DNA of 64,000 bases from an uncultured Alphaproteobacteria bacterium. GTDB lineage: Bacteria; Pseudomonadota; Alphaproteobacteria; Rhodobacterales; Rhodobacteraceae. Below are positions 4,155-25,686 of the stretch, in pieces; position 1 is the stretch's first letter, and the number at the start of each line of letters is the position of its first letter. The notes below the pieces were generated by a model. It was not told the origin of the DNA. It did no database searches and saw only the letters and a program-made list of their open reading frames with translations. The stretch is from positions 1,640 to 65,639 of the forward strand of contig CAVQRB010000012.1 in NCBI GenBank assembly GCA_963715055.1, read 5' to 3'. The position numbers were made by a program, and so were the translations under genes.

Positions 4155-4359
4155 GCGCCACCTTAAGCATATGCGGGCCGGAAAAAAAAGAACGCCCTAA
4201 GCCAAAGAGGCAAAGGGCGCGACAAGGTACGGAACGAGGGACAGTCATTGGACCGGCAGGCGTTCCATGTCTGCCGGTGCACTAGAGATAAGAACGTCGC
4301 AGCCCGATTTAAGAGTGTCTCGCGATTATGTGAACAGACGATGAAGCTACGGGCAGTGT

Positions 4360-4671
4360 TCAGTCGAAAATATCTTCCACGACATCGAAGATTTCCTCGA
4401 GCGCCCGTGAAAAGAGGCTCTTGCGGCGCTTGGGCCTATGCGTCTTGAGTTTTCTGGGCCGGTGATCGTGTTTCTGAACCTGCAAGGGCTTTGAGTGTTT
4501 GATCTCACGCGGTCTCGCGGTCTCACCGACAGCCTCCATGGGCATGCGCTTGAGATTGTGCAGCGGTGCGCCGCAACTGGCGCATCCCAACTCGTGCCGC
4601 GCCTTGTCGAGAACGAGCGCGGCGCGTGTTCCGCAATAGCAGCAGGTCGCGATCTTGGTGCTGTAGGCCAT
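4360..4671 (-). CDS. Small zinc-ribbon protein with basic tail (hypothetical)
   Basis: CCYCG...CASCG four-Cys ribbon, Lys/Arg-rich middle; GGGAG SD upstream of ATG. Confidence 0.6.
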   Translation of the reverse strand: MAYSTKIATCCYCGTRAALVLDKARHELGCASCGAPLHNLKRMPMEAVGETARPREIKHSKPLQVQKHDHRPRKLKTHRPKRRKSLFSRALEEIFDVVEDIFD

Positions 4672-4694
4672 GGGCTCCCGTTCCGTTCCGCGCT

Positions 4695-5480
4695 TCAGCG
4701 CACCGCACGGCTTGCATATAGGGCGATGGCCGCCGCATTCGAGACGTTCAACGACCCGAAACCACCCGCTGCGTCGATCCGTACCAGCGCGTCTACGGTC
4801 TCCTTGGTCTTTTCGCGCAAACCCGGCCCTTCCGCCCCAAGCACAAGGGCCACTGGCCTGTCGCGCTTGCCCTCTACCGCATCCTCGATCGTCTGGCTTG
4901 CCTCTCCGTCGAGCCCCAGGACGAGGTAGCCCATGGCTTGCAGGTCCCGGATCGCATCGGCGAGATTGCGCACCCGGAGGTAGGGTTGGCGCTCGAGCGC
5001 CCCGCTCGCGGCCTTTGCAAGGGCACCAGTCTCCGGGGCGGAATGATGGCGCGTGCCGATCACCGCCGAAGCCCCCAGCACCTCCGCAGAACGCAGGATG
5101 GCGCCGACGTTGTGCGGGTCCGTCACCCGGTCGAGCATCATGACCCGCGGCGCGTCGGGCCCGATGCAGACATCTTCCAGCCTGCCCCAGTCGAGGGGCT
5201 TTGCCTCGAGTGCCGCCCCTTGATGGACCGAGCCCGGATCAAGCGGGGCTGAAAACTTGCGCGGGTCCACGATCTCGGCCTCGATCCCTGCCGCCTCGAT
5301 CGCATCCGCCAGCTTGGTCTGGGCGTTGAGCGTCACGACAAGACGCAGTTTTTCCCGCGCCGGGTTCAGCAAGGCGTCCCGCACCGCATGCAGCCCGAAG
5401 AGCCAGACCGTCTCGCGCTCGGAAGCTTTGCGGTCCTGCTCCTTCTGCACGACCCACTTGGGTTTTTTCATCTCATCCAT
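4695..5480 (-). CDS. TrmH/SpoU-family RNA 2'-O-methyltransferase (RlmB-like)
   Basis: LDxVTDPHNxGAIxRSA and LVLGAEGxGLR, SLNVSNAAAIALY motifs. Confidence 0.85.
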   Translation of the reverse strand: MDEMKKPKWVVQKEQDRKASERETVWLFGLHAVRDALLNPAREKLRLVVTLNAQTKLADAIEAAGIEAEIVDPRKFSAPLDPGSVHQGAALEAKPLDWGRLEDVCIGPDAPRVMMLDRVTDPHNVGAILRSAEVLGASAVIGTRHHSAPETGALAKAASGALERQPYLRVRNLADAIRDLQAMGYLVLGLDGEASQTIEDAVEGKRDRPVALVLGAEGPGLREKTKETVDALVRIDAAGGFGSLNVSNAAAIALYASRAVR

Positions 5481-5581
5481 CCACCTGATTCAGGCCGCAG
5501 TCCGGCGCGAATTTCGCCTTGACGCCTCATGGCCTCGCTTGTAATCACGCCCGGACCGGGGATGCAACGCATCTGCGGTGT

Positions 5582-5665
5582 GGGCGACAGGCCGCAAGGT
5601 GTGGCAGGGGACTGTAACTCCCTCGCGGAGACGCACGCCTGGTTCGATTCCAGGGTCGCCCACCA
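5582..5665 (+). tRNA. tRNA-Tyr: tRNA-Tyr (anticodon GTA), encoded CCA
   Basis: Hand-folded cloverleaf: acceptor GGGCGAC/GTCGCCC, D stem GCCG/TGGC, anticodon stem GGGGA/TCCCT with loop CTGTAAC, long variable arm, T arm CCTGG-TTCGATT-CCAGG, A-CCA end. Confidence 0.85.
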
Positions 5666-6365
5666 TTCTCAAAATCCAGAACTTCATTCCCGGTTTTCAT
5701 GAATGGCACGATGATGCGTGCTACATTTCCTGTGCTGCGCCGGCGCGCGACGCACCTCCCGATAGCTGATCATTTTGGCCGATGAACCATCCCTTGGAAT
5801 TTACATTTCACCTCGTGGAGCGGAGGCGTGAGGTGGCCAGTCGAACCACATGGCGCCAACTACGTGTAGAGCCTGTAGCCTACGCCTTCAGCAACGCGCT
5901 CTAACCGACTATAAACATGCGGGACCTATCACGGACCCTCGTCCCTGACACGCTTTGAATGCCTGAAAGCGCCCGGTTTACCGGACCGCCGAAGCAGTAT
6001 CTTCAGGCTTTGACCACCGAAAGTACCGGGTTCGGTCGCATCGCGGTTCGAACTTGTTCCAAACGTGAATCGAAAACACCAAGCCGGGCAGCGGCAGAAT
6101 ACGCAAGATACTCTGGAGTGCCCTCACGGCCGCGTCGCAAGCGCTCGCACCGACGTAAGTGAGCATTGCTCCCGCTCACGGCATCGCCTATCGACAGACA
6201 AGGAAAACCGAAGGAGCGGATGCGCGGCTCTGATCTACGCGACACTTGCTGGCGCATGGCGCTTGGGCGTTCGTCACGCTTCGGCATTCCGGGGCATGGC
6301 GATGCGATGCGAGGCGAAACATCCAGTCTGCCTTGCGACGCGCCAACGGAGAGATGGGAGTTGCG

Positions 6366-8521: not shown

Positions 8522-8839
8522 TCATGCGGCGTCCTCCGACGGTCGGGCAACGACGCCGGTACAGCATTCTGAGGTCAGAAACCCGAGCACCCGCCGCATT
8601 GCGGGAAAATCGACCCGATTGAACACCTCACGCCCCTGCCTGTCCTGAAGCACCAGACCCGCATCGACCAGCGTCGAGAGATGATGCGCCAGGGTCGACG
8701 GTGCCATCTCCAGATGCTCGCCGATATCGCTGACGCGCAAACCGTCATCGCCGGCCTTCACCAGCAGGCGAAAGATCGACAGGCGGGCATCATGGCCGAG
8801 GGCGGCAAGGGCGCGGGCGTTTGGGCTGGTTAGTGTCAT
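8522..8839 (-). CDS. arsR: ArsR/SmtB-family metalloregulator
   Basis: Winged HTH (RLSIFRLL...VSDIGEHLEMAPSTLAHHLSTL...GLV), C-terminal ECC pair. Confidence 0.9.
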   Translation of the reverse strand: MTLTSPNARALAALGHDARLSIFRLLVKAGDDGLRVSDIGEHLEMAPSTLAHHLSTLVDAGLVLQDRQGREVFNRVDFPAMRRVLGFLTSECCTGVVARPSEDAA

Positions 8840-8853
8840 GCTTCAAATATAAC

Positions 8854-8871
8854 TACAAAACTAGTTTTGTA
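8854..8871. promoter_or_regulatory. Perfect 18-bp palindrome, putative ArsR operator
   Basis: TACAAAACTAGTTTTGTA lies 15 bp upstream of the arsR start codon in an AT-rich stretch. Confidence 0.5.
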
Positions 8872-9179
8872 AATGATTCTGTTTTGATGCCACGGAACTG
8901 ATGTGCGCCGAATGCGCCGGACTGCATTTCACGTCCTTCGGTCGATTTGTCTTTCCCAGCCGTCTCATCTGCCGAAATGCTCTTGGCGTTTGGGGACACG
9001 TCGGGGCGATGCGCGTCCCTGCCGGCATCCTGCAAAGCCTGCCTTCGGCCTCGGGGCGCGTCCATCAAACGGTCTGCATGGAGGCACTGCTGTGCAAGAC
9101 CACAGCCCGAAGAATGCATCGTATCCCCGACAAGACAAAGGGATCTCCGCATGATTCAAACGGGTTTCCTGAGAGCGGA

Positions 9180-10241
9180 TCAGGATTTCCAGGTTCGTTC
9201 GAGTACGGCGAGCCAGTTTTCATGGCAGAGCTTCGTCATCAGCGCCGCGTCATACCCGTGCTGCGACAAGGCCCGGCGCAGCGCCCCCAGACCGGCAGCG
9301 TCATGCAGCGCGGCAGGCACCTGCGCGCCGTCGAAATCGGATCCGAAGCCCACGCGATCCTCGCCCAGATGGTCGATCAAGTGATCGAGATGCCGCAGCA
9401 TCGGTTCGAACCCCCGGTCGTCCGCCTTTTTCCCATCCGTGTTGAGAAAGCCTGTGGCGAAATTCAATCCGACCATGCCGTCGCTTTCCCGGATCATCGC
9501 CAGTTGCCGGTCGGTCAGGTTGCGCGAGGAGGCCGTGACCGCGTGGGCGTTCGAATGTGTCGCCACCAGCGGTGCGGTGCTCAGCGCCGCTACGTCGTTG
9601 AACCCCGCCTCGTTCAGATGCGACAGATCGACCATGATGCCCAAGTCGTTGCAGAGCGCGATCAGATCCTTGCCCGCGCCTGTCAGCCCGGGTCCGGTAT
9701 CAGGCGAGGACGGATAGGCAAAGGGCACGCCGTGACCGAAGACCGTCGGACGGCTCCAGACCGGGCCGAGCGACCGCAGCCCCATGTCGTGAAAGAGGTA
9801 AAGCGCATCGAGATCGGCGCCGATGGCTTCGGCCCCTTCGATGTGCATGATCGCGGCGATGACACCCGTCGCCATGCAGTCGCGTATCTCGGCGACGCTC
9901 CGGCAGATGCGCAAGCCGCCTTCCGAAGACCGTTCCATCCACTTCAGATGCCCTGCCATCGCAAGCGCCACGGGCTGGGCCTCGGCCACATCGATCGGGT
10001 CTGGCAAGGGCAGGTGATAGGGCGGGTTTTCCATGTCGTCGTCGATGTTCTCGCGGACCTCCGGCGACGCGATGTAGATGGCGAAGAAGCCGCCGGCAAA
10101 TCCCCCCTGCCGCATCCTCGGCAAATCGAGATGACCCTGACCGGTGTCGGTCAGCCAGGTTGCATCACGGTTCTTCGGATCGCGCAGAAGCCGCAGGAGG
10201 AAATCGTTGTGCCCGTCGAAAATCAGCGGCGTCATCGTCAT
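9180..10241 (-). CDS. Membrane dipeptidase (peptidase M19)
   Basis: FDGHNDF N-terminal motif and HSNAHA, GxDFDG motifs; start at MTMTPLIF abuts the stop of the upstream ATPase gene (2-nt gap). Confidence 0.85.
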   Translation of the reverse strand: MTMTPLIFDGHNDFLLRLLRDPKNRDATWLTDTGQGHLDLPRMRQGGFAGGFFAIYIASPEVRENIDDDMENPPYHLPLPDPIDVAEAQPVALAMAGHLKWMERSSEGGLRICRSVAEIRDCMATGVIAAIMHIEGAEAIGADLDALYLFHDMGLRSLGPVWSRPTVFGHGVPFAYPSSPDTGPGLTGAGKDLIALCNDLGIMVDLSHLNEAGFNDVAALSTAPLVATHSNAHAVTASSRNLTDRQLAMIRESDGMVGLNFATGFLNTDGKKADDRGFEPMLRHLDHLIDHLGEDRVGFGSDFDGAQVPAALHDAAGLGALRRALSQHGYDAALMTKLCHENWLAVLERTWKS

Positions 10242-12739: not shown

Positions 12740-13803
12740 CCGCGGCGCCTCACCCGGGGATCGAGCAGGGAGTAGAGCAGGTCGGAGAGAAGGTTGAGCC
12801 CCACGAAGATCACCCCGATCACCAGTGTGCCGCCCAGAACCGCGTTCATGTCGGCGTTTTGCAGGCTGTTGGTCAGATATTGGCCCAGTCCGGGCCAGGC
12901 GAAGACGGTTTCGGTCAGCACCGATCCTTCGAGCAAGCCCGCATAGCTCAGCGCGATGACAGTGACCAGCGGCACCGCCGCGTTGCGCAGCGCATGGACC
13001 CAGATGATCCGCCATTCGGCGACCCCCTTGACCCGCGCGGCGATGATGTATTCCTGCGCCAGTTCGGCCAGCATGAACGACCGCGTCATCCGGCTGATAT
13101 AGGCCATGGAATAGTAGCCCAGGAGCGATGCGGGCAACGCGAGATGCGCCAGCACGTTGCGGAAGGCGTCCCACTGCCCCTGCAAGGCCGTGTCCACCAG
13201 CAGGAGGCCGGTCGTACGCGTGACCGAATACTCATAGGCGATGTCGATCCGCCCCGGTCCCGCGACCCACCCGAGCTTGGCATAGAAGATCAGAAGACCG
13301 ATAAGGCCAAGCCAGAAGATCGGCGCGGAATAGCCCACAAGCCCGACGACTCGGATCACCTGATCGGGCAGCCTGCCCTGCCGTACCGCGCTCCAGACGC
13401 CCAGCGGCACCCCGAAGGCAGTGCCCAGGATGATCCCGGCGGTGGCCAGTTCCAGCGTTGCCGGAAAGACCCGGGCGATGTCCTCGACAATGGGTTTCTT
13501 GGTCAGGATCGAGGTGCCCAGATCGCCGCTCAGCGCCTGAGACAGGTAAATCCAGAATTGTTCGTAAAGCGGCTTGTCCAGCCCGAGCGCTATGAAGGCC
13601 GCATCATAGGTCGATTGCGAGGCGCGATCCCCGACGACGGCCAGGACCGGGTCCACCGGGACCACGCGCCCGATCAGGAATGTGACTACCAGCAGCCCGA
13701 GAAAGGTAACCGCAACCGTCAGGATCAGCTTTGCGGTCTTTGCCGCGATACGCGGAAGGGCGCGCCAGCGCCCTTCCGTCTTGCCGATCGTCAGAGAGCT
13801 CAT
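12736..13803 (-). CDS. ABC transporter permease (DppB-like)
   Basis: LGLDKPLYEQF motif, six TM segments, C-terminal DPRVR. Confidence 0.9.
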   Translation of the reverse strand: MSSLTIGKTEGRWRALPRIAAKTAKLILTVAVTFLGLLVVTFLIGRVVPVDPVLAVVGDRASQSTYDAAFIALGLDKPLYEQFWIYLSQALSGDLGTSILTKKPIVEDIARVFPATLELATAGIILGTAFGVPLGVWSAVRQGRLPDQVIRVVGLVGYSAPIFWLGLIGLLIFYAKLGWVAGPGRIDIAYEYSVTRTTGLLLVDTALQGQWDAFRNVLAHLALPASLLGYYSMAYISRMTRSFMLAELAQEYIIAARVKGVAEWRIIWVHALRNAAVPLVTVIALSYAGLLEGSVLTETVFAWPGLGQYLTNSLQNADMNAVLGGTLVIGVIFVGLNLLSDLLYSLLDPRVRRRG

Positions 13804-15404
13804 TCGCTCTTGGTCACTTTCTTGAACGAGTTGTCATTGAAGGATGGCCCGATGATGAAACCGTTCACGTTCTCGCGGATGCCCAGAACCTCGATCTCCT
13901 GGAACATGATCACGAAGGGCGATGTCTGTTGATGCTCGCGCTGCAGGGCGAGATACATCTCGGCCCGTTTGCCTGCATCCTTTTCCAGCACCGCAGCATC
14001 TGCGGCAAGGGTCATTTCCGGAATGTCCCAGGCGTTGCGCCATGCCAGCGGCTTGCTTGTCGCCTCGTCGCTGTTGTCGGGGTTGCGCGCGAATGTATCT
14101 GCGTTGGTGTGCGGGTCCTGATAGTCCGGACCCCAGCGACCAATGTAGATGTCATGGTTGCGGGCGCGGTACTTGGTCAGGGTCTGCTGGCCGTCCCCCG
14201 GGATAAGCTCCATGGTGATGCCGGCCTGCGCCATGGTCTGCTGGATCGCCTCGGCGATGGCGGTGATTTCCGGTGTGTTGCGGGTATCCATCGTCACCGT
14301 GAAGCCGTCGGCGAGGCCAGCCTGCGCCAGCAGTTCCTTTGCCTTCTCCACGTTGAGCGAATAGGGCGTCTCGCTCAGAGCGCCGAGGAAGCCTTCGGGA
14401 AGGAAGGCCTGATGCACCTTGACCTTGCCCTTCATGATCGTGTCGGCGATCGTCTGGTAATCCACCAGATATTTCATCGCTTCGCGCACTTCGGGCTTTG
14501 CAAGGTTCTCGTTCTTCTGGCTCAGGCCCAGATAATAGATCGAGCCCTTGGCACCGCTTTCGATCTTGATCTCGGGGTTGTCGGCAAGTGCCACGATCTC
14601 CTCGGCGCCGAGGTTGCGGGCAATGTCGATGTCGCCCTGCTCCAGCAGCAGCCGCTGCGTGGCGCCTTCGGGGATATGACGATAGATCGCGCGGACCATC
14701 GCCGGCGCCTCGCCGGAATAGGCATCGTTGCGCTCCAGCACCACGACCTCATTGGCGCGCCAGTCGCGAATGGTGAAAGCGCCCGAGCCTGCATAGTTAG
14801 TCTTGAGCCATTCATACCCGAAGTCGCCATTGGCTTCGTTGCTCATCACCAGTTCCTTGTCGACGACGAAACCGACGGTCGCCGTCAGGCAATAAAGAAG
14901 CAGCGTCGGCGCATAGGCCTTGTCCATCTCCAATTCGAAGGTCATGTCGCCGGTCTGGCGCACCATCTGGTCCACGTTGTCCGCGCTGAGGCCGAACTGC
15001 GTGAGGATGAAGGCCGGAGATTTGTCGAGCTTGACCGCGCGCTGCAGGGAGAACACCGCATCGGCCGCGGTGATCGGGTTACCGGAGGCAAAGGTCATGT
15101 CGGGGCGGATCACGAAGGTGAAGATCTTGCCATCCTCGGAGACCGACCAGCTTTCGGCCACGACGCCGAAAATGTCGGAGACATTATTGACGTCATAACC
15201 AACCAGCGGCTGGTAGCTGTTGCCGAGAATTTCCGACGCCGTGAACTCGAAGACTTCGGCCGGGTCGAGCGAAATGATGTCGTCGATCTGCCACGCCTGA
15301 ATGAGCGTATCCGGAGGGGTTTCCGCGTGGGCCGCGGGCGACGACAGGCAGAAAGAGGCTGTCACCACTGCGGAGGCTAATATCCTGGAAACATGTCTCA
15401 TCAA
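13800..15404 (-). CDS. ABC transporter substrate-binding protein, family 5 (peptide/nickel/opine type)
   Basis: Signal peptide ...SSPAAHA, 534 aa, family-5 SBP layout; first gene of the operon. Confidence 0.9.
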   Translation of the reverse strand: MMRHVSRILASAVVTASFCLSSPAAHAETPPDTLIQAWQIDDIISLDPAEVFEFTASEILGNSYQPLVGYDVNNVSDIFGVVAESWSVSEDGKIFTFVIRPDMTFASGNPITAADAVFSLQRAVKLDKSPAFILTQFGLSADNVDQMVRQTGDMTFELEMDKAYAPTLLLYCLTATVGFVVDKELVMSNEANGDFGYEWLKTNYAGSGAFTIRDWRANEVVVLERNDAYSGEAPAMVRAIYRHIPEGATQRLLLEQGDIDIARNLGAEEIVALADNPEIKIESGAKGSIYYLGLSQKNENLAKPEVREAMKYLVDYQTIADTIMKGKVKVHQAFLPEGFLGALSETPYSLNVEKAKELLAQAGLADGFTVTMDTRNTPEITAIAEAIQQTMAQAGITMELIPGDGQQTLTKYRARNHDIYIGRWGPDYQDPHTNADTFARNPDNSDEATSKPLAWRNAWDIPEMTLAADAAVLEKDAGKRAEMYLALQREHQQTSPFVIMFQEIEVLGIRENVNGFIIGPSFNDNSFKKVTKSE

Positions 15405-15839
15405 ATTACTCCCTTGATGTGAGATGGACAGGATCGCCCGGTGATCGGACGTCTCCCTGTCAGCCTTTCAATACGGTCCCAGCAGGTGAAGACTGTCAAG
15501 GACTTCCTTGATGACTGCCGGCAGGCGATTTTGAGCAAGCGTGTCGCGATCCCGCCTCGCACGACAAACAGCGGGCTTCTTGGCCTTCATGGCAGGACCA
15601 CCCAGGATATCCGGAAAAAATCCTTTTTTCCCATAGGACTGGGCGAGAATCGCTTGCCGGGAAGCCGTCCATTCTCCGGCAGTTTCCCGCAGGGTTTCAA
15701 TGGCTTTGCATGGCGCAGATGACCAGAGGGGATCGCGCGGGTTGGCGTGCATGGTCTGAAACCGCAGGCATATCGCCGATCTTCTGGATGCGCGCGATCC
15801 AAGCGAAGAGCCTGCGAAAGAGGCGTAAGGGGCCGCCTG

Positions 15840-16510
15840 TGATCCGTGGATCGCAAAGGGGAACAGCGTTCTGGTGACCGGGCTCCAAAATGGTATTGGC
15901 GCACCCAAGGCGCTTGGCCTCTTCGCAAGAGGCCGGGGTGTTGCCGTCAGCCTTCTTGATCGCGGCGGAAGGAACGCCGCCATGGTCGCTGAACGTGAGG
16001 CGGCGGTTGCAATGGTCGTCGCGCTCGACGTAACCGACGCGGCCAGCATCGAATGCGGCTTGGCCGATGCGGTGTCGCGACCCGGCGGTCTCGACATCCT
16101 ATTGGATAGCGCGAGGGTCGGCTCCAAAGATATCCGGGGGATGATGTTCCCCAAGGATATGCCGCAGGGGGAGTTGACGTGAATAACGTGGGCGCTCGGC
16201 AGGTCATGCGGGCAGAAGGTCGTGGAACCGCTCCTAAGCCTGCAGCCTGATTGGGTGGATTGCAGCAGGGTTTTTTGGCACCTGTTCGGGACCGCCATGG
16301 ACGCTGGAAGCCTTTGTCGAATGCTGCCGCTCCGAGCTCTCGGATTTCGGTATCGGGTTCTGCCTCATCGAACCCTGGGGCATGCCAACGGCCTTTTTTG
16401 ACGGCATGAACGCGCCGAATGACGCAGCACACAAAACTGAATTTGCCACCTCGCCCGCGAAGTTCAATCGCGGCCTGACCGGGATGCTCGACCTGAGAGC
16501 AAGATAGGAA
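15840..16510 (+). pseudogene. Short-chain dehydrogenase/reductase pseudogene (no start codon, frameshifted)
   Basis: Frame A reads KGNSVLVTGLQNGIG...LDVTD...GGLDILL (SDR N-terminus) and stops at 16182. Another frame reads LEAFVECCRSELSDFGIGFCLIEPWGMPTAFFDG (SDR C-terminal region). Boundaries approximate. Confidence 0.45.
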
Positions 16511-16882
16511 AGACATGGAAACCTGCTCACCACAAGGCAAGGGCCTCCGACGGCATCGGTGCGGCGACGCCCCGGCATGATCAAGACCAAATTTGGCGGC
16601 GCAAGGACCATGCCTCGCGGTCAGAACCGCGCCTCGGCAAACCCTGGGCCGAAACGTTGACGCCATCACGCACGTCCGGCAGAGCCACGGGCTTGCGAAG
16701 GGAGCACGGGAAATGGAGCGAGCGCATCACCGCCAGACGGACACTCTCGCGGCGCATCGTGAAACACAGAAAAGGTGAAGGTTTGACCATCCCGCCACAG
16801 GATGAAACCGCCCTGCCCGTGCCAAGCCAGTCATCTGAGACAGCGCTGTCGGACGCATCTGGCGCATCGACCGTCTGGCGGT

Positions 16883-17311
16883 TCAGGCGGTAGTGCCTGC
16901 CTCGAGAACAAATCGCACTCCACCCAGGACCACGTCACGGTAGAGGTAGAAGCCCATCTCGAGCGGCGGCAGGTCATCCGGAAATACCATCGGTTCGACT
17001 TCAATGCCGGCCTGCGCCACGATCTTGTTGACCAGATCCGCGACCGCCTGCGGTTCAGCCAGAGCCACCTCGCCATCGAGCATGAAGTCCTCCCATTCCA
17101 ACAGGTCGAACATCACCTGTCCCAACTTGTAAAAGGGATGCGGTTCGAGGATTTCGATCCATCGGGCGGCCCGGTCCGGAAATGCCCGTCGGAAACCGAC
17201 GCCCAGTCGGGCCAGCGTGCAGGCCGCGCCACGCAACCCGTCGTTCAGAGGCATCAAGCGCATCAGCAGCGCCACATCGGTTTCGGGCAGGTCGTCGAAA
17301 GTCAGGGGCAT
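16883..17311 (-). CDS. Hypothetical protein (142 aa), last gene of polyprenyl-synthase operon
   Basis: ATG 1 nt after stop of upstream gene (17313); high GC3; no family recognised. Confidence 0.6.
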   Translation of the reverse strand: MPLTFDDLPETDVALLMRLMPLNDGLRGAACTLARLGVGFRRAFPDRAARWIEILEPHPFYKLGQVMFDLLEWEDFMLDGEVALAEPQAVADLVNKIVAQAGIEVEPMVFPDDLPPLEMGFYLYRDVVLGGVRFVLEAGTTA

Positions 17312-17312
17312 G

Positions 17313-18968
17313 TCAAAGCGCCCTCGTTGTCACATAATTGGAGATTTGTCGCAGTACCGCCTTGCCGGGCGTTTCCGGAATGAAACTGAGGTCGGCCTCG
17401 AACCGGCGCACGCCCTGGTTGGCCAGCCGGTCGGCATGGGCGATGGCATAATCGATTGATCCCACCTTTTGCATCGCCGCCAGCATTTCCTCGGCAAGGG
17501 CGAAGTCCTTTTGAATGCGCGGCAGGGCATTGATCTCGGTCATGCGGGTCCGGACATCTCGTCTTGCCTCGCGAAAGAGGTGAATCATCATCACCGTGCG
17601 CTTCCCTTCCAGCAAATCGCCCAAGGCTTCCTTCCCGTAAAGTGCGGTTTCGCCGATGAGGTTCAGAATATCGTCCTGGATCTGGAAAGCGATGCCTGTC
17701 AGCCGCAGGCTTTCATTGAACCGGTCCAATAGTGCCGGGTCGGTCACGCCGGCCGCCACGGCCCCGATGCGGCAGGGGCTGATGCAGGTGTACCAGCCGG
17801 TCTTCTTGGTGCTCATCCGGCTGTAGTCAGCATCCCGGGACGGCACGAAGTTTCGCCTGATCCACCCCAGTTCAATGGCCTGTCCCTCGACGGTTTCGCG
17901 GCACATGTGCAGGATCTCGTGGATGATCCCAAGGGTTCGAGCCAAGCCGATGGTGCCGAGATTGGACAGCGTCATATCGACGGCAAAAAGATGCATGGCG
18001 TCGCCCGCGTTGACTGCCAGCCCGATGCCATGCGCCTCGTGCAGGGTCGGAAGGCCGCGGCGATGGGTGCTCTCATCGGCGATGTCATCATGCACCAGAA
18101 AGCCGTTGTGAAACATCTCGAGCGCCGCGGCCGCGCGCACCCCGTCCTCCATCCGCCCGCCCAGAGCCATGCAGGTGGCGATCACCAGTGTCGGACGCAG
18201 CCCTTTGCCTTCGCGAACCACATAGTCTTTCATGAGCGCATAAAGATCGCGCTGCGGCGGCTTGGCGGGGATCAGGCGCAGGATTTCCTCGACCACGCGG
18301 GTCTTGCAGATGTCCATGGTCATCAGCAGGTCGTTGTCGAAGACATCGTCGAGCGCCTGCCAGCTTTCGGCCTGCCTGCCGTTCCAGAGCGACCGCGCGG
18401 GTGCCAGCACCGGCTCCTGTCGCTCCAGCAGGTCCACGCCCGCCGGGTGGCGTTTATCCAACCAGTCGAGGGCAGGCCAAGCCGCGTCGTCCCAATAAGC
18501 TGCGCCGCGTTTGCGAGGCCGTGCCGCGGGCATTGCACCCGGCTCCCAGATACCGGCCCTGGAATCGCGGTAGTCGCTCCAGAGCGCCTGTACCACCCGC
18601 AGCCCGGACGCCCGTTGCGACAGCAGCCGGAAACAGCGCCAGACTGCCAACAGGTCCTCGCGCGAGCCGCGCATATCCAGCGACTGCTCGAGGGCCTGGT
18701 CGGAAGGCCGCTGGATCGCATCGAACAGCAGCATCAGGGCCCTGTCGTCAAAATGTACGGCGACATCGCTCGCGGTGTCTGTCGCCTGTTCGGCAGGAAC
18801 GACCTTCAGCGTACTCTGCCGCGCCTGCATCAGTGAGGAGGAACCATCACCGAACATCAGGTGCAGGCGAATCTGGCCCAATTCACGGGCCGCGGCCGCG
18901 ATGATCGCGGGCGCGCGCTTCGACAATGCGGCGATGGTGCCGTCAAGGACATCCGCGCCGTTAATCAC
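17313..18968 (-). CDS. Fusion protein: N-terminal SCP2-like domain + C-terminal polyprenyl diphosphate synthase
   Basis: C-terminal half has GKGLRP, FLVHDDIADESTHRRG (first Asp-rich motif), FQIQDDILNL (second motif), EGKRT. Start set at GTG 18968 (GGGAGGGG SD; GTGATTAA overlap with upstream stop) rather than ATG 19082. Confidence 0.8.
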   Translation of the reverse strand: MINGADVLDGTIAALSKRAPAIIAAAARELGQIRLHLMFGDGSSSLMQARQSTLKVVPAEQATDTASDVAVHFDDRALMLLFDAIQRPSDQALEQSLDMRGSREDLLAVWRCFRLLSQRASGLRVVQALWSDYRDSRAGIWEPGAMPAARPRKRGAAYWDDAAWPALDWLDKRHPAGVDLLERQEPVLAPARSLWNGRQAESWQALDDVFDNDLLMTMDICKTRVVEEILRLIPAKPPQRDLYALMKDYVVREGKGLRPTLVIATCMALGGRMEDGVRAAAALEMFHNGFLVHDDIADESTHRRGLPTLHEAHGIGLAVNAGDAMHLFAVDMTLSNLGTIGLARTLGIIHEILHMCRETVEGQAIELGWIRRNFVPSRDADYSRMSTKKTGWYTCISPCRIGAVAAGVTDPALLDRFNESLRLTGIAFQIQDDILNLIGETALYGKEALGDLLEGKRTVMMIHLFREARRDVRTRMTEINALPRIQKDFALAEEMLAAMQKVGSIDYAIAHADRLANQGVRRFEADLSFIPETPGKAVLRQISNYVTTRAL

Positions 18969-20019
18969 CGCCGGCCCCTCCCGAGAATTCCACGATGCCT
19001 CTGGTCTCGAGGCGGAAAGAGCGACCGTTGACGCGACCCGACATCTCGCAGGGACCGACGACTTCGTGCACGTTGAAGGCATTCAGGCTGGTTTCCGACG
19101 GAATCACGATCCGCACCGCCCAGTCGGCATCGAAATCCAGCACCACCCGGTCGTCGCCCTGCCGCGCCATGATGACAAGCCGCCGCGGCAAGGCCGATAC
19201 CGGCGCCACGCCGAGCAGGCCCGCGAGGGGCGGCGCCATCGACACCCGGTCACGGTCCATCTCGCCGCGCACCGCGAAACTGACGCAGCGGCGCGGGAAA
19301 TGCCGCACCATGCGCCCCTTGTGCCACAGCATGAAGGAGGCGGTCGCCTCGGCGGGCCTCGCGGCCGGACGAATGAAGGTAAATACACCCGCCCATTCCG
19401 GCGGCTCTCCCGCCTCGGCGTTCAGATCGTTGGCAAAGCCGAAGACCCATTCACCCAGATCAGGCCAGCCCCAGCGGCCGCGCACCCGTTCATGATACCC
19501 CACAAGATCCACCTGCGTCCTGCCCTTCGGCGTGACCCAATCGCCGACTGCCGTCACACCGGTTTCGGACTGCCACCGCAGATGTTGGTGGCGCGCGAAA
19601 ACCGCCGTCTGGCTGGTGCAGTTGCGGCTGGTGCGTGTCAACGCGAGATCAACGGCCGGGGACCCATCAGCGGCAGCAATGCTCAGACGCCCGGCCACCC
19701 CATGTGCATGGGGTCGCGTGAAGGCCGACCAGGGAGGCCGCCGGGTGGCGGCGTTGAACTGGCTGGTATGCCAGGGCCCCTCGCCGTCATGCAGCACGAG
19801 AATGGTGGCAAAGCGCTCGGTGCCCGGCGCTTCCCCTTCGGCCGGGCCGAGCCAGGATGAATTGGCGACCAGCGCCTTTTGCCCGTCGCGTGACAGAAAA
19901 GCGTAATGCAGCCAGCGGCGGTCAATCGGGTCGGTCAAGGGGCTGGCAGGAAAAGGCCCGGCAGGTCCGAGCCCAGTGGGCCGGGAAGACACCGCTTCGG
20001 AATACCGAAAGGACTGCAT
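18961..20019 (-). CDS. Hypothetical Trp/Gly-rich protein (352 aa); faint resemblance to CrtC/AttH-type hydratase fold
   Basis: AGGAG SD before ATG 20019; high GC3; motif GYHERVRGRWGW. Family assignment is only an impression. Confidence 0.6.
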   Translation of the reverse strand: MQSFRYSEAVSSRPTGLGPAGPFPASPLTDPIDRRWLHYAFLSRDGQKALVANSSWLGPAEGEAPGTERFATILVLHDGEGPWHTSQFNAATRRPPWSAFTRPHAHGVAGRLSIAAADGSPAVDLALTRTSRNCTSQTAVFARHQHLRWQSETGVTAVGDWVTPKGRTQVDLVGYHERVRGRWGWPDLGEWVFGFANDLNAEAGEPPEWAGVFTFIRPAARPAEATASFMLWHKGRMVRHFPRRCVSFAVRGEMDRDRVSMAPPLAGLLGVAPVSALPRRLVIMARQGDDRVVLDFDADWAVRIVIPSETSLNAFNVHEVVGPCEMSGRVNGRSFRLETRGIVEFSGGAGGD

Positions 20020-20157
20020 CGGCTCCTGCCCCCAAATCGAATTGTTTCATATTCGCAGATTGAATGGTATCATACTACCAGAAATAGAATAGAATTTCGA
20101 TTGCCATATACGTTCGGGCGCCCTGTTATTACGGCGCATTTCCCCTGGGAGGCCGAC
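20020..20157. promoter_or_regulatory. AT-rich divergent control region with repeats and sigma70-like boxes
   Basis: Direct repeats TCGAATTGTTTCATATTCG (20037-20055) and TCGATTGCCATATACG (20097-20112); TGGTA-N6-TACCA (20065-20080); tandem TAGAAT TAGAAT (20085-20095); TTGAAT (20060-20065). Confidence 0.35.
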
Positions 20158-20967
20158 GTGAAACCGAAAAAGACTTTGCCTTCAAAAGCTTCCGCCCGGT
20201 TCACCGCGATTGCGATCGAACCGCCCGATGCTCTGAAGCCGATTGCCATCAAGACTCACCGCGAGCTCTTCGCGAAGTCGCGTGAGATGGCCGAACGGGT
20301 CCGGGATAACCCGGAGTTCAGCGTGATGTTCCTGTCGAACCCTGTCCTTGCGCTCGAGGCCTATGGCATCAAGCTCAGTCCGGAATTGCGCCACCATGTC
20401 ATGGATACCCTGCGTCATCCGCCCAAGCTGCGTGCCCGCCGCGCGGAACTCGAAGCCAGCCTGGAGGAGGCGCTGGGTGAAAAAGCCAAGCCCACCGATG
20501 AGGCATGGATGGCCGATCTGGTATTCCGCAAACGCAAGATCGAGCCCCGTGACATCGGCAGCGGCGAGCCTGCCTACAAGCCGGCGCTGAATGCGGCCTC
20601 GGTCGAGCGTCTGCAAAAGGCGCGCCCCAAGGCCACGAAGCGCTACAGCGGCCAGCGCCGGTCGAAAGTGCAATTCTCGCTGACCGTCGCACCGCCTTCC
20701 AACACACTGCGACGGATGGACCTCGATGCCGATGTACCGGATATGAAACCGGCCGCGAAAGCCCCCAAGTCGCTGACGCTTGAAGAGGCCTGGTTCTACA
20801 AGGACGACGCCATCGTGAAGGAGGCGGTCGAGTTGGGCCAGATCATGCGCCGCGGCTTCCCCTTCAGAACGCCCGCCGAGTTTCGCGCCATCGCCAAGGG
20901 TGAAAAGGTCGACGCCTTCCGGCGCTTTGTCCGCGCGGTCAGGATCCGCGAGGTGACGCCGGAGTGA
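20158..20967 (+). CDS. Orphan protein A (269 aa), very basic, with NHLP/nitrile-hydratase-alpha-like helical motif
   Basis: GTG start with GGGAGG SD 5 nt upstream (ORF 19906..20967 trimmed); motif DNPEFSVMFLSNPVLALEAYGIKLSPEL. Confidence 0.65.
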   Translation: MKPKKTLPSKASARFTAIAIEPPDALKPIAIKTHRELFAKSREMAERVRDNPEFSVMFLSNPVLALEAYGIKLSPELRHHVMDTLRHPPKLRARRAELEASLEEALGEKAKPTDEAWMADLVFRKRKIEPRDIGSGEPAYKPALNAASVERLQKARPKATKRYSGQRRSKVQFSLTVAPPSNTLRRMDLDADVPDMKPAAKAPKSLTLEEAWFYKDDAIVKEAVELGQIMRRGFPFRTPAEFRAIAKGEKVDAFRRFVRAVRIREVTPE

Positions 20968-22697
20968 GCAACACATCGAATTTTGACTATTGCGTGCAAT
21001 TCGGCATCGAGGCCGTGCGCGAGGTCTTTCACCTCGCCCTCAAGAATGAAGATCTTTTCCCCCACAACCTGCCGCCGCTGACCCGCGATTTCGGCGGCCA
21101 TACCGCCACTGTGCGCGTGCGCCTGCTTGACGACATGACCGACAGCGCGGATCTGTCTTTCCAGGACGAAAAGCACATCCTCTTCGATCTGCCCATCGAG
21201 ATCGCGGTCGAAACACCCGACGCCCCGGACCCGTCGCTGGCGACGGTGACACTGCAATCCACCGTCCGGGCTCCCGGTGCTCTGGCGACCTGGCCGGTAT
21301 CTGGAGACGATCAGCTTGGACTGGAGTTTTCAGGCATCACGGCGGCAGATGTCGAGGTGCCCGCGCTCACCGGCCTGCCCACACTGGATGCCGCACGCTT
21401 TGTCGCCGCGTTGCATACGAAATACGAAACCCTGCCGAGCCACAGTTTCACCCTCGGCGGCAACACGCTGAACATCTACGACGGGACACGGGACGCAACG
21501 CTGATCCCGGGCAACAAGGCCGGTAACCCCGAAATCACTGCGGCGCTCGAAAACCACGGCGGCAAGCAGTACCTCAGGATCACCATGCCACTGCACGCCA
21601 ATGTCACGGTGCCCGTCACCTATGCAAGCTATGGCACGGCGACGCTTTGGCGCGAGGTCGTGACCGGGGGCGGCACGGTCCGGGTGCTGATGGAGACCGA
21701 GCCCGCGGACGACCCGCTTGCCACGACCATCGTCTTTGACAACGGCGGCATCGGCGGCATCATCGCCGACCAGCTCGAGCCCTTGCTGATCACTCAGATC
21801 GCAGCTTTCGCCCCGGTCGAGGAACCCTGGTTCGACGAAGACAGCGCGCGCGCCCTGATCCGGCAGGAAACCGCAGGCTACCTCGCGCCGCGCCGCTTTC
21901 CCTTCTACACGCCACAATCGGGCGATTCCGAGGTTGCGCTGGAGACGCCGGTCGGCTTCCTGCTGCTGGCCAATGAAACGCTCGCGATCCTGATGAACCG
22001 GCGGACCGGCACCGCGGCGGATGACGCAGCACCCGATGACTTTCGAGGGGCGCACATCCTTGCACTGGCGCTCAGCCGGGCGGTTCTGGACGAAACCATC
22101 GCCGATGCCATCGCAGAGGAATTTCCAGGCCTTGCCAGCGGCGGTCACCGGATCGAAACGGACGAAGGCGACGCCACGCTGCAATCGCTGTCGGTCACCC
22201 CATCAGACCCCGGCAGCCACGATGAAAGCGAGGGGCATCTCTGGGTCTCGGGCGAGGCCGAGGTGCACATAGACTGCTGGCCGGATCCCGACGTCAGCTT
22301 TGACGGCCCGATCTTCCTGCGCCTTGATGTGACGGAAACCGACACGGAATGCAGCGCTGTGTTCCGCGCCGAGATGGGCGAATTCGATGCCGGCCAGAGC
22401 TGTTGCGACGTTTTCGTCGATTTGATCATCCCGATCGTCGGCTGGATCATGCTGGGTGTCATCGAGTCCATGATCGACCGGGTCGGCGGCGAGCTGGCCG
22501 AGGAATTCGCCGGGGCACAGGAACGTCAGATGCAACCCATCCCGACCTTCGTGGTCGGCGTGGCCGAACTGCAGGCCTGCCTTGAATCGGTGCAGACCTC
22601 ATCGCAAGGACTGGTGATGCCGGGCAAGCTGCGCATCCGCCGCGAAGGAACGAGTTTCGAAGACCTGCTTGAAGGCGGCGACCTGCCGCGCCCCTGA
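20964..22697 (+). CDS. Orphan protein B (577 aa), acidic, one C-terminal hydrophobic helix
   Basis: GTGA start/stop overlap with A; high GC3 throughout; no family recognised. Confidence 0.75.
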   Translation: MSNTSNFDYCVQFGIEAVREVFHLALKNEDLFPHNLPPLTRDFGGHTATVRVRLLDDMTDSADLSFQDEKHILFDLPIEIAVETPDAPDPSLATVTLQSTVRAPGALATWPVSGDDQLGLEFSGITAADVEVPALTGLPTLDAARFVAALHTKYETLPSHSFTLGGNTLNIYDGTRDATLIPGNKAGNPEITAALENHGGKQYLRITMPLHANVTVPVTYASYGTATLWREVVTGGGTVRVLMETEPADDPLATTIVFDNGGIGGIIADQLEPLLITQIAAFAPVEEPWFDEDSARALIRQETAGYLAPRRFPFYTPQSGDSEVALETPVGFLLLANETLAILMNRRTGTAADDAAPDDFRGAHILALALSRAVLDETIADAIAEEFPGLASGGHRIETDEGDATLQSLSVTPSDPGSHDESEGHLWVSGEAEVHIDCWPDPDVSFDGPIFLRLDVTETDTECSAVFRAEMGEFDAGQSCCDVFVDLIIPIVGWIMLGVIESMIDRVGGELAEEFAGAQERQMQPIPTFVVGVAELQACLESVQTSSQGLVMPGKLRIRREGTSFEDLLEGGDLPRP

Positions 22698-22730
22698 CGC
22701 CGGGGCCTGAACGCGTGAAAGGAGAGGACG

Positions 22731-24110
22731 ATGCCAACCGAAAGAGGCTTTGTGGAAACGCTCGGGGTAGGACGCGCCGGGCTTGTCGAAGCGGCGGTGC
22801 TGCACGGCGACGGGTCACGAGCGATCTATACCGTCGCCGATCTGGATGCCGACCCGGAACGCTTCAACGAAAGGCTGTCGAAATTCGGCATCCTGCGCGA
22901 CGCGATGGACCGGGCCGAACCGGTCGAGATCGAATTCGACCGATCCGATGGCTTTCGCCCGGTCGAAAGCGTCAAGCGGCTGACCCGGGATGCGCTGGAA
23001 AGGCCCGAGGAAACCTCGGTCGCCTCGGGCATGGTGGTCGGGCTTTCGGTATCCTTCGAGGTGAACATCAATCCCTTTGGCGAAGCGTCGGATCGCGCCA
23101 TGCTCGCCTTGCTGACCGGCACCGGCGTGGTCAACTTCGTCATCCGCCTGCAGGCGCCCGAACGCCATGCGGCCATGGCGATGGTCGACATCGCCCGTGA
23201 CGCGCAGGCCTCCGGTGCAAGCGTGACAGTGACCTTCGGCACCAAGAACCGCGAGGTCACGCAGATCGCGCGCGACGATCTGGCCGGCGCCAGCGGCCAG
23301 GAGACCGAGCAGTTTTCGGCCTTTGTGGAGGAGATCACCCATACACCGGTCTCCAACCTGATGCTGGTCGCCGTGACCACCGCGCCCGAGTTCGTCTTGG
23401 AGGGAAATGTTGTCCCGCTGGAGGGTTTTACGCCGGAGCTGCGCAATCTGGCGGTGGTCTACAACTCGCCGGAATACCTGCTGCTTCAAGCTGCGCTGCG
23501 CGACAAATTGCGGGTGGAACTGATGACCCTGCGACCGCGCGAGCGCGACGATCCGGACAAACAGCCGGATGAACCGGTCGGCGACGAAATCCCGCGCAAT
23601 GATGTGACGGGGATAGCGCGCTATGCCGAGGCGAAACCGGCCGCAATGAGCGGCGACTCAAAGCTCCGGACGGAAGCGATGGGCAAAGCCACGCGGGCCA
23701 CCTACCTTCTGCGGGGCGCCACCCTTCAGCACGCTCTCTGCTCTGCCAGCCGGCCCGTCTGGATCGAGGTCAACCGGCGCGCGCTGGACCTGGGGCCGGA
23801 CGAGGAATGCATCGAAGGCCTGCCCTCCAGCGACATGCGTCCGCAGACCATCCGCGAGTTGAACCTGCCTTACCGCGCCGCGTGGATCGGCTATGGCTGC
23901 TTCAACCACGGCGTCTACCGCATCCAGATCGCCACGGATCGCGATGTCACCGTGTTTGTCGATGGCGAGGAAATCTGCCTGCATCGCGACAAGGCGGGCG
24001 ACACGGTCTTCGGCCATGCCTGCCTCGAAGGCGACCATGAAATCCGGATCGTGTTTGAGAATTGGAAATGCAAGGCGAAGTTTGATATGGACGTGTATCG
24101 CATCCGCTGA
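22731..24110 (+). CDS. Orphan protein C (459 aa)
   Basis: GGAGAGGA SD before ATG; high GC3; C-terminal approx 90 aa look like a beta-sandwich (GVYRIQIATDRDVTVFVDGEEI...); no family recognised. Confidence 0.75.
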   Translation: MPTERGFVETLGVGRAGLVEAAVLHGDGSRAIYTVADLDADPERFNERLSKFGILRDAMDRAEPVEIEFDRSDGFRPVESVKRLTRDALERPEETSVASGMVVGLSVSFEVNINPFGEASDRAMLALLTGTGVVNFVIRLQAPERHAAMAMVDIARDAQASGASVTVTFGTKNREVTQIARDDLAGASGQETEQFSAFVEEITHTPVSNLMLVAVTTAPEFVLEGNVVPLEGFTPELRNLAVVYNSPEYLLLQAALRDKLRVELMTLRPRERDDPDKQPDEPVGDEIPRNDVTGIARYAEAKPAAMSGDSKLRTEAMGKATRATYLLRGATLQHALCSASRPVWIEVNRRALDLGPDEECIEGLPSSDMRPQTIRELNLPYRAAWIGYGCFNHGVYRIQIATDRDVTVFVDGEEICLHRDKAGDTVFGHACLEGDHEIRIVFENWKCKAKFDMDVYRIR

Positions 24111-24127
24111 CCGGAAAGGAGTTCCGC

Positions 24128-24631
24128 ATGGCCGACGAAGAGGTCGAGGAGACCAGAACCATCATTGTGACCCAGCGCTGTGCTGAGAGCTTTGCGCTGT
24201 CCGGCAGCGAGCAGCATCCGCCAATGCAGCACCGGGTGCAGGCCGATATGGTCCACCACACCGACAAACCGGTCGTCCACATGCATCTGTGGAACGAGGA
24301 TTGCGTGGGCAAGCTGGACGTGCAGCACAGGTCCAGCACCGACACGGAACACCCGTTTCACGTAGCGCACCGTTTCGACACGCCGCATGCCCAGACCCAT
24401 GAGATGCAAACCTCGCTGGCAGCACCGATCCACCACGCCCTGCAGATGCGCACACCGTTGCAGATAAGGTTCTGCAATACCTGGCAGGTGGCATCGGATT
24501 ATTCGGTTCAGGTGGCCCTGCGCGGGCGGCCTTTCCTCGACATCCGCCTGACCGGCGCGACTGTGGCCACGCCGCAGCCCTGCCCTGACGACGACTGCGC
24601 ACCCGATCCGAAGGCGGCACAGCATCCATGA
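24128..24631 (+). CDS. Orphan protein D (167 aa), His/Cys-rich
   Basis: GGAAAGGAG SD; 15 His and 5 Cys in 167 aa by my count; high GC3. Confidence 0.6.
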   Translation: MADEEVEETRTIIVTQRCAESFALSGSEQHPPMQHRVQADMVHHTDKPVVHMHLWNEDCVGKLDVQHRSSTDTEHPFHVAHRFDTPHAQTHEMQTSLAAPIHHALQMRTPLQIRFCNTWQVASDYSVQVALRGRPFLDIRLTGATVATPQPCPDDDCAPDPKAAQHP

Positions 24632-25185
24632 GCGAGCAAAAGCAAGACCCGCGTCCCGGCGAGGCGGTTGGCGAGTTGGTGTCCTCGGCGCTGAAACTCT
24701 CTGCGGCCGTCGTGCAGACCGTGGCGGAGGCCGCAACCGGCAAGCCGCAGGCAAACCGCCCCGGAGACACGCCTCTGCAGTCGATGATCCGGCATGGCAC
24801 CACTGCCGCAAGCAGCATCCTGACCACGGTCATGAGCGCCACCCGCGAGGGGTCGGCCGCCGAACCGGCAGCGGCGCCGGTGAACGCGCCGCCGCGCGCC
24901 CCTCGCGTGGCGCGCGGCTCCAGCCTTCGTCTGCCGTTGTCGGTGGACAATCTGCGCGATACCGTCATGCAGGACATCGAGCCGCGCTTGGTCGACGCCG
25001 AAACACCGACACCGTTGCATGTGAGTTTCAAGCCGGAAAAACTGACCATCGCACCGAATGATTTCGAGAAGCTGACGGTCCGCGTGGACGTACCCGAGGA
25101 CACTCCCCCCGGGCGATACACTTTTGCCTTCACCCTGCCGGGTCAGGAAACCCAGCCGGTGTCGCTCTCGGTCGAGGTCGTGTGA
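24628..25185 (+). CDS. Orphan protein E (185 aa): Ala-rich helical N-terminus, Pro/Ala linker, beta-sandwich-like tail
   Basis: ATGA overlap with D; tail ...LTVRVDVPEDTPPGRYTFAFTLPGQETQPVSLSVEVV. Confidence 0.65.
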   Translation: MSEQKQDPRPGEAVGELVSSALKLSAAVVQTVAEAATGKPQANRPGDTPLQSMIRHGTTAASSILTTVMSATREGSAAEPAAAPVNAPPRAPRVARGSSLRLPLSVDNLRDTVMQDIEPRLVDAETPTPLHVSFKPEKLTIAPNDFEKLTVRVDVPEDTPPGRYTFAFTLPGQETQPVSLSVEVV

Positions 25186-25305
25186 ATGCCTGAACAGACG
25201 CAATCACGGACTCAACAACAGCCACATTTGCTGGTATCCTTACACCAGCCTCATCGGTCTTGCCGCCGTTTGACCGGGGCAGGTCATTTGTCAGGAGTTT
25301 GAAGC

Positions 25306-25686
25306 ATGCAGGACATCAAGACGGAAGAAATCGCCTCCGCTGGCAATGAGCGCGACCGGTTCCGCGGGCTCGACAATGTCACGGCAGCCGCGCGCGAACT
25401 GGCACAGCGCCTGCGCGAGACGACCGTGGCCGTGGGCGAGGTCGCCGAACAGGAGTTGGCCTTTGTCGTGGGGCTGGCCGAAGACATCCGCGACAAGTCG
25501 GTGTCGCCCGAATTGCTGAAAGAAGCCCGAAGCCTGCCGGTCCTCAGCGGCCTGAGGGTGACGTCGCACCGCGTGGTTGATCTCGGTTTCGATGCAGTCA
25601 GCGTCGGGGTCAAGCTTGGGTCGGACGCTTTCGACGATTTCCTTGCGCCGCGCGCGGAGCGGCGGTCGATTGCCACGGCAGGCTGA
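25306..25686 (+). CDS. Orphan protein F (126 aa), acidic helical
   Basis: AGGAG SD 8 nt before ATG; 120-nt gap after E, so it may be its own transcription unit. Confidence 0.55.
   Translation: MQDIKTEEIASAGNERDRFRGLDNVTAAARELAQRLRETTVAVGEVAEQELAFVVGLAEDIRDKSVSPELLKEARSLPVLSGLRVTSHRVVDLGFDAVSVGVKLGSDAFDDFLAPRAERRSIATAG

Follow-up and report, generated by a model that had tools for sequence, protein, structure and literature searches.

Gene content of the locus

The DNA analyzed here (the window) is a stretch of 64,000 nucleotides from an uncultured alphaproteobacterium of the family Rhodobacteraceae (GenBank assembly GCA_963715055.1, contig CAVQRB010000012.1, positions 1,640 to 65,639). It carries two divergent groups of genes, six on the forward strand, named A to F, and three on the reverse strand, named G352, PPS, and H142 (Table 1). 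The nine genes recur together in other bacteria, and we regard the cluster as a probable lipid-handling operon of the type built on bacterial tubular lipid-binding (TULIP) proteins, in this case combined with isoprenoid biosynthesis.

Genes A to F had been described in an initial annotation as six same-strand open reading frames (ORFs) with a strong GC bias at the third codon position (GC3), and the ORF listing reproduced their coordinates and lengths. The GC content at the three codon positions followed a coding pattern in all six (GC1 0.64-0.72, GC2 0.44-0.52, GC3 0.77-0.80), which was not seen in the long antisense ORFs; gene F was in coding phase on the + strand. The ORF that holds A is open from 19906, and coding-type phasing starts at about 20158. 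The Shine-Dalgarno (SD)-like sites noted earlier were found again (GGGAGG-N5-GTG at 20158, GGAGAGGA before 22731, GGAAAGGAG before 24128, and AGGAG before 25306), as were the two coupled junctions, a GTGA overlap at 20964 and an ATGA overlap at 24628. The 4-nt overlap of A and B was present in 26 of 37 loci. Since orthologs keep their order in dozens of genomes, A to F are genes and not chance ORFs. The described composition was also correct: protein A has an isoelectric point (pI) of 10.1 and 20% Lys plus Arg, B has a pI of 4.3 and C of 4.95, D contains 9% His and 3% Cys, and residues 483-501 of B are the sole strongly hydrophobic stretch in A to F.

On the reverse strand, the stop codon of G352 is overlapped by 8 nt by the probable start of PPS, and a gap of 1 nt separates the PPS stop from the H142 start. 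The PPS ORF is open to 19082; its likely start is the GTG at 18968, which is preceded by the SD sequence GGGAGGGG and matches the gene call in another locus (L005). The intergenic region presumably holds a bidirectional promoter, and one sigma-70-like match with a TG extension, a consensus match only, lies within it at 20046-20073. No RNA elements or repeats were found across 15-27 kb of the window.

Table 1. Features of the cluster, in window coordinates
Feature	Position	Strand	Length	Description
H142	16883-17311	-		Small acidic helical protein, last gene of the divergent operon
PPS	17313-18968	-		trans-Polyprenyl diphosphate synthase with an N-terminal domain of ~220 aa
G352	18961-20019	-		Probable divergent relative of the tocopherol-cyclase/DUF2804/CrtC (AttH-like) superfamily
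Intergenic region	20020-20157			AT-rich, between the divergent operons (read from the sequence)
A	20158-20967	+	269 aa	Basic helical protein (ORF listing)
B	20964-22697	+	577 aa	Acidic, several modeled TULIP modules
C	22731-24110	+	459 aa	OB-like barrels and PA14-like beta-sandwich (model)
D	24128-24631	+	167 aa	Small His/Cys-rich protein
E	24628-25185	+	185 aa	Helical N-terminus, linker, Ig-like (E-set) C-terminus
F	25306-25686	+	126 aa	Small acidic protein, probably helical (by sequence)

Conservation and extent of the cluster

Related loci were collected from contig look-ups and from a scan of one genome per species. The scan was pattern-based, so the 38 loci obtained (numbered with the prefix L) are a lower bound. 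When tblastn was performed with the window proteins, a conserved order was observed, with H142, PPS, and G352 on the - strand facing A-B-C-D-E on the + strand, followed by F and often by LytB (IspH). This arrangement was kept in essentially all of the 38 loci with a long enough contig. The loci belong to Alpha-, Beta-, and Gammaproteobacteria, Gemmatimonadota, Actinomycetota, Chloroflexota, and Ca. Brocadia, and the carriers include the culturable strains Rhodobacter ferrooxidans SW2, Phenylobacterium sp. LjRoot225, Sphingomonas sp. LB2R24, and Paraburkholderia sp. XV. The cluster is a rare 9-10-gene unit that spans at least six bacterial phyla.

The proposal that the six genes and the divergent three-gene operon are co-conserved and syntenic was borne out by the 38 loci. 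The polyprenyl-synthase operon had been regarded as a back-to-back neighbor of A to F; because the same order is kept across the loci, it belongs to the same conserved cluster, usually together with IspH. The notion of a six-gene operon stood in part. The six genes are co-oriented in the window, but F is not consistently co-oriented elsewhere and the conserved unit comprises 9-10 genes. Gene F lies on the + strand in the window and in one actinobacterial locus (L033), and on the opposite strand beside IspH in almost all others; in L002, for example, it occupies 14363-14734. Together with the gap of 120 nt between E and F in the window, the strand of F in nearly all other genomes favors a description as A to E plus F rather than as a six-gene operon.

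IspH/LytB (PF02401, E = 2e-82) adjoins the cluster in 19 distinct loci, about half of the total. No LytB was found anywhere in the 64-kb window or adjacent to the cluster in the other Rhodobacterales copies (L007, L012, and L034), so that lineage has a rearranged 3' end of the cluster. Orthologs of F were found in 24 loci with 33-56% identity, and orthologs of H142 in 29 loci, always adjacent to PPS. A search of the flanks for further co-conserved families yielded none beyond LytB, and no plasmid matched the cluster.

Two observations concern the surroundings of individual copies. The Rubrivivax copies (L002/L003) have transposases on both sides, at 1-5720 and 16933-19528 (Transposase_mut, rve/IS3, and IS110), so the cluster may sit on a mobile island, which fits its patchy distribution across phyla. 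In the Ca. Brocadia locus (L001), the flanking ORFs at 1271-1528 (85 aa) and 8722-9555 (277 aa) had no Pfam match and no counterpart in the other loci.

Sequence-family and literature searches

Searches of Pfam, NCBIfam, PADLOC, and PHROGs with all nine cluster proteins gave nothing above noise except PF00348 in PPS, and A to F are without a sequence-family assignment, as had been stated initially. PDB sequence profile searches with A, B, C, D, E, G352, H142, and the PPS N-terminal domain returned noise only. An all-against-all comparison of the cluster families with hhalign detected no homology between any pair, and no signal peptides were found in the cluster proteins. The database names of the orthologs are all "hypothetical protein" except for two automatic domain labels, one on an ortholog of C and one on an ortholog of G352. 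A known anti-phage defense system was considered and rejected, with 0 PADLOC matches at E <= 1 for eight proteins.

No description of the cluster was found in a literature search that did not reach subscription journals, and the cluster is still a good candidate for an undescribed system. The broader claim, that these are proteins with no recognizable family, did not survive at the level of structure, where relatives were predicted: a TULIP fold for B, OB and PA14-like domains for C, and an Ig-like domain for E.

Protein B has a predicted TULIP fold

A search with protein B yielded 261 homologs, with 47-84% identity across phyla. Their length was nearly fixed at ~577 aa; identity was 55-84% among Proteobacteria, and values of 41-51% were still reached in other phyla. 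The AlphaFold2 (AF2) model, built with 31 homologs, had a mean predicted local distance difference test score (pLDDT) of 79.7 and a predicted TM-score (pTM) of 0.69, and displayed repeated modules of a long helix and a curved sheet. When the model was compared with the PDB using Foldseek, all eight matches at E <= 0.001 were TULIP proteins, with probability 1.0 and E-values between 3e-9 and 3e-6: OrfX3 (twice from PMP1 and once from C. botulinum E1), CETP, BPI, LBP (twice), and P47. JHBP and SPLUNC1 were among the weaker matches, and unrelated folds also appeared below E 1e-2. According to the model, B is a TULIP-fold protein with about four helix-plus-sheet modules. None of the described TULIP families (LBP_BPI_CETP, OrfX/P47, DUF1439/YceB, and SMP) was matched by B in Pfam or NCBIfam at E <= 1; in terms of sequence, B represents a new family of this fold class.

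Longer forms of B, of ~730 aa, were present in Ca. Brocadia (L001 2835-5027) and Chloroflexota (L038, L040, and L043). They contain a tandem duplication of the region equivalent to residues ~127-260 of the window protein and have five modules, which fits a modular build. A profile-profile comparison of five segments of B detected no internal homology or sequence repeats. The hydrophobic helix at residues 483-501 (KD19 2.17) directly follows an invariant S-C-C-D motif. Sets of invariant or near-invariant Cys residues were observed at residues 438-539 of B, 360-447 of C, and 116-157 of D; candidate roles for these and for the invariant His residues of D are metal binding, disulfide formation, and lipidation.

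The best structural matches of B, OrfX1-3 and P47 (PDB 8fbd, 8bgm, and 5wix), come from the botulinum-neurotoxin-type orfX clusters. Like B, they are bacterial, lack a signal peptide, and are encoded in a multi-gene operon, and OrfX1-OrfX3 form hetero-complexes. However, B has no sequence similarity to them, and orfX clusters contain several TULIP paralogs, whereas here the hhalign comparison and the model of C revealed none besides B. The orfX clusters are also tied to neurotoxin/NTNH, whereas no toxin or NTNH gene was present in the window neighborhood or co-conserved with the cluster. Unlike orfX, the present cluster always includes isoprenoid enzymes, and its carriers are environmental members of Proteobacteria, Actinomycetota, Chloroflexota, and other groups.

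TULIP domains carry lipids, and the eukaryotic BPI/LBP/CETP and Takeout/JHBP proteins, which share the fold class with B, hold hydrophobic ligands in a tube, including isoprenoids in Takeout and JHBP (PMC5507252). These proteins are secreted single or double TULIPs, whereas B is longer, with ~four modules or, in the 730-aa forms, five, and has neither a signal peptide nor a Pfam LBP_BPI_CETP match. In the TipA/TipB system of Bdellovibrio, the lipid tube of a TULIP protein is opened by a beta-sandwich adaptor from the same operon (bioRxiv 10.1101/2025.09.09.675085). In its operon arrangement, this combination of a double TULIP with a beta-sandwich adaptor resembles B with its beta-sandwich partners; TipA/TipB differs in being a two-gene predation system with no isoprenoid genes.

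Proteins A, C, D, E, F, and H142

The AF2 model of C had a pLDDT of 80.6 and a pTM of 0.49. OB-like barrels were placed at residues 1-83, 95-182, and 192-267, followed by a disordered linker at ~280-375 and a beta-sandwich at 380-459. In Foldseek searches, the tandem barrels matched CST, RPA, and SSB in the PDB (E 3e-5 to 4e-3) and baculovirus LEF-3 in BFVD (E 1e-7), in both cases at fold level only, and single barrels resembled the B subunits of AB5 toxins. The C-terminal sandwich is Cys-rich and PA14-like or collagen-binding-domain-like: PA14 was matched with a probability of 1.0 but with E 0.02-0.045 over ~80-110 aligned columns, and the collagen-binding domain (CBD) of ColG and CipA matched as well as PA14 (probability 1.0, E ~1e-2). 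No Pfam PA14 match was obtained with C, and one C ortholog carries the UniRef label "PA14 domain-containing." Protein C models as three tandem OB-like barrels followed by a PA14-like sandwich.

Protein E has an Ala-rich helical N-terminus and a low-complexity linker, and its C-terminal sandwich contains an invariant DFEKL motif. Sub-threshold matches were recurrent among 30 orthologs (NPCBM_assoc in eight, FixG_C in four, and fn3_5 in three), and E probably ends in an Ig-like (E-set) sandwich. A phasin-like nature of E and F was considered and found to be unsupported, as the hydrophobic-moment scan was not discriminating.

The aligned orthologs of A were conserved along their whole length. Residues ~52-76 gave weak matches to NHLP-clan models in 6, 4, and 3 of 31 orthologs (three models, overlap not resolved), with a best E of 1e-3. 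A precursor of a ribosomally synthesized and post-translationally modified peptide of the NHLP type was rejected for A, with sub-threshold matches only and a 269-aa chain conserved over its full length. The core of D was very conserved in the alignment (PIHHALQMRTPLQVRFCNxW...TGATVATPQPC...C), with H35, H51, H81, H87, H102, and H103 invariant and C116, C152, and C157 conserved in >=90% of sequences; H142 displayed the invariant motif FDLxEWEDFM in its alignment. Neither D nor H142 had a Pfam or PDB match, and no relatives of F and H142 were found outside the cluster.

PPS and G352 of the divergent operon

PPS matched PF00348 with an E of 2.4e-53 and 181 bits against a cut-off of 27. The first aspartate-rich motif (FARM; FHNGFLVHDDIADES, DDIAD) and the second (SARM; QDD(I/V)LN) were kept in 23 of 23 aligned sequences, and the SARM block was gap-free. 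Judged by its family match and motifs, PPS is a bona fide trans-prenyl diphosphate synthase. Its best NCBIfam matches were short-chain IdsA/GGPPS types, all under the cut-off. Since no NCBIfam equivalog cut-off was reached, the chain length of the product is one that we infer.

The N-terminal domain of PPS (window 18300-18968) was considered as SCP2-like, and this was kept only as a lead: one of 21 sequences matched SCP2 (E 0.21) and one of 21 matched Alkyl_sulf_C (E 0.15). An N-terminal stretch with an SCP2-like look reads HFDDRAL..LFD...LDVRG. In P0499, a distant relative of G352, the C-terminus matched the SCP2 sterol-carrier domain (E 1e-3). The N-terminal extension of PPS is also a feature of the cargo proteins of family 2 encapsulins with polyprenyl-transferase cargo. 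However, the cluster has no gene for an HK97-fold shell, and no such Pfam match was found among A to F. An encapsulin cargo role was rejected, with 167 bits for PPS against NF041169 (cut-off 450) and no shell-like family among the cluster proteins.

A profile search of 1.84 billion representatives yielded a wider family of ~345 aa for G352, with which G352 aligned in hhalign over 308 columns (probability 99.9, E 2e-34). Among the 102 members of this family, 43 matched Tocopherol_cycl, 22 DUF2804, and seven CrtC, with a best E of 7.5e-6. Because the intermediate family both aligns to G352 and matches these three families, the profile-profile and transitive Pfam evidence links G352 to VTE1, DUF2804, and CrtC and makes it a probable divergent member of the tocopherol-cyclase/DUF2804/CrtC superfamily. 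The motif GYHERVRGRWGWP of G352 corresponds to AYHDHNWG in the intermediate family, and the R. ferrooxidans ortholog of G352 carries the UniRef label "AttH domain-containing." The characterized enzymes of the tocopherol-cyclase/CrtC group act by protonating double bonds of prenyl chains, which leads to ring closure in tocopherol cyclase and to the addition of water in CrtC. G352 is a candidate for an isoprenoid cyclase or hydratase that protonates a C=C bond.

Proposed function and alternatives

In the reading that we prefer, to which we give a probability of about 0.45, a modified isoprenoid of short chain length is made by the divergent operon, and A to F, the non-enzymatic half of the module, form a complex around the TULIP protein B that binds or moves this product. 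IspH, adjacent in many genomes, would supply C5 units, PPS would build a short-chain (~C15-C20) prenyl diphosphate, and G352 would protonate a prenyl C=C bond, by which the chain would be cyclized or hydrated. The start-stop overlaps of A/B and D/E suggest that A to E (and F) are produced in fixed proportions, and they may form a hetero-complex. Protein B would be the core of this complex, its hydrophobic tube holding the lipid product as in CETP, BPI, Takeout, and JHBP. Adaptor or targeting roles could fall to the OB and beta-sandwich domains found in C and E, much as the sandwich protein TipB opens the TULIP protein TipA, and the basic protein A might pair with B and C, which are acidic, or with an anionic membrane. 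Proteins A, C, D, E, and F would load, target, or release the isoprenoid with B. We infer that the ligand of B is the product of the enzymes, that A to F form one complex, and that G352 has the chemistry proposed.

Several results weigh against this proposal. The global TM-scores of B against known TULIPs were low (0.23-0.38), and the assignment leans on the local scores from Foldseek and on the agreement among the matches; low values are expected because the chains are elongated and multi-domain, and they are still a caveat. The link between B and an isoprenoid ligand is drawn from the gene neighborhood alone. G352 gave no direct Pfam match with 27 orthologs and no PDB match, and all Pfam matches of its ~345-aa relatives were under the curated cut-offs. 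No family assignment was obtained for A, D, F, H142, and the PPS N-terminal domain. The cluster contains no class I terpene synthase, phosphatase, or acceptor-prenyltransferase, which leaves the path from prenyl diphosphate to free lipid unexplained. Finally, the PA14-like, Ig-like, and AB5-like OB domains and the Cys clusters of B, C, and D are features more often seen in extracellular proteins, yet no signal peptide is present.

A more far-reaching version, which we consider rather doubtful, is that the cluster encodes an unrecognized cytoplasmic machine or organelle-like particle that has spread horizontally over at least six phyla. A dedicated isoprenoid pathway, made up of IspH, the extended PPS, and the tocopherol-cyclase-like enzyme, would then feed a TULIP-based assembly of a new kind that sequesters or delivers lipid, with a new terpenoid as cargo. 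Besides the four-module TULIP, this assembly would contain the tandem-OB/PA14 protein, a metal-binding protein rich in His and Cys, and coat proteins of the Ig-like and helical types.

Two further explanations are unlikely. The first is a protein-coated isoprenoid lipid body, an analog of the plastoglobule, in which the enzymes would fill a neutral prenyl-lipid droplet that A to F coat and load; B would load the lipid, and the helical segments of E and F and the hydrophobic helix of B would lie on the surface. The plant tocopherol cyclase VTE1 is located on plastoglobules, and a tocopherol-cyclase-like enzyme together with lipid-binding and small helical proteins would be in keeping with such a body, as would several abundant-looking, co-expressed, non-enzymatic proteins, the single hydrophobic helix of B, and the Ala-rich helical N-terminus of E. 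However, the phasin, oleosin, and fibrillin families were unmatched in Pfam, NCBIfam, PADLOC, and PHROGs, neither E nor F stood out in the hydrophobic-moment scan, reports of inclusion bodies in the carrier organisms are lacking, and the argument is purely by analogy.

The second, which we judge equally improbable, is an exported membrane-targeting complex of the OrfX/P47 or BPI type, directed at a host or competitor. Protein B would perturb the target membrane or extract its lipids, the modules of C and E would bind surface glycans, and the isoprenoid enzymes would provide a cofactor or protect the producer. The best matches of B (OrfX3 and P47, which are also operon-encoded and free of signal peptides, as well as BPI and LBP) are consistent with export, as are the resemblance of the C domains to AB5-toxin B subunits, PA14, and collagen-binding domains, the E-set domain of E, the conserved Cys clusters in B, C, and D, the patchy cross-phylum spread, and the transposases around the Rubrivivax copy. 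Against it, no toxin, secretion-system, or lysis genes are co-conserved, signal peptides are absent, and PADLOC returned nothing. Of the two modeled proteins, B and C, only B is a TULIP and hhalign found no homolog of B in the cluster, whereas orfX clusters hold several TULIP paralogs. The invariable linkage to PPS and G352 would also be left without a reason.

A nucleic-acid role, in which the basic A and the tandem-OB protein C would bind single-stranded DNA or RNA as a mobile-element or defense module with incidental lipid genes, is very improbable: it would agree with the best whole-chain matches of C (CST, RPA, SSB, and baculovirus LEF-3), the high pI of A, and the patchy distribution, but C is acidic, its tandem-OB matches had TM-scores of 0.12-0.23 and hold for the fold only, no nuclease, helicase, ATPase, or helix-turn-helix is present, PADLOC, PHROGs, and plasmids gave no match, and B and the isoprenoid enzymes would stay unexplained.

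Few bacterial TULIPs have been characterized (YceB, OrfX/P47, and TipA), and none of these is known to be linked to a biosynthetic pathway. The family of B is a new TULIP family that is genetically locked to PPS, a tocopherol-cyclase-like enzyme, and often IspH, and from this linkage follows a hypothesis on the ligand of a bacterial TULIP that can be tested directly. The terpenoid to which the cluster points is probably new, and the cluster contains five protein families without known relatives (A, D, F, H142, and the PPS N-terminal domain). Since the cluster is present in culturable strains, experiments are feasible.

Other observations in the window

A segment of about 1.4 kb at 15405-16880 separates H142 from an SBP_bac_5 ABC-transporter gene on the - strand (13800-15404). 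All of its ORFs lacked coding-type GC phasing, and it had no Pfam match, no ortholog in related loci, and no Rfam match. Decayed genes are one possible explanation, and a long non-coding spacer bordering the cluster is another. At the far end of the window, the GC content at 57000-64000 was 0.53-0.56, compared to 0.58-0.67 elsewhere, and this may be a foreign segment or one of different origin.

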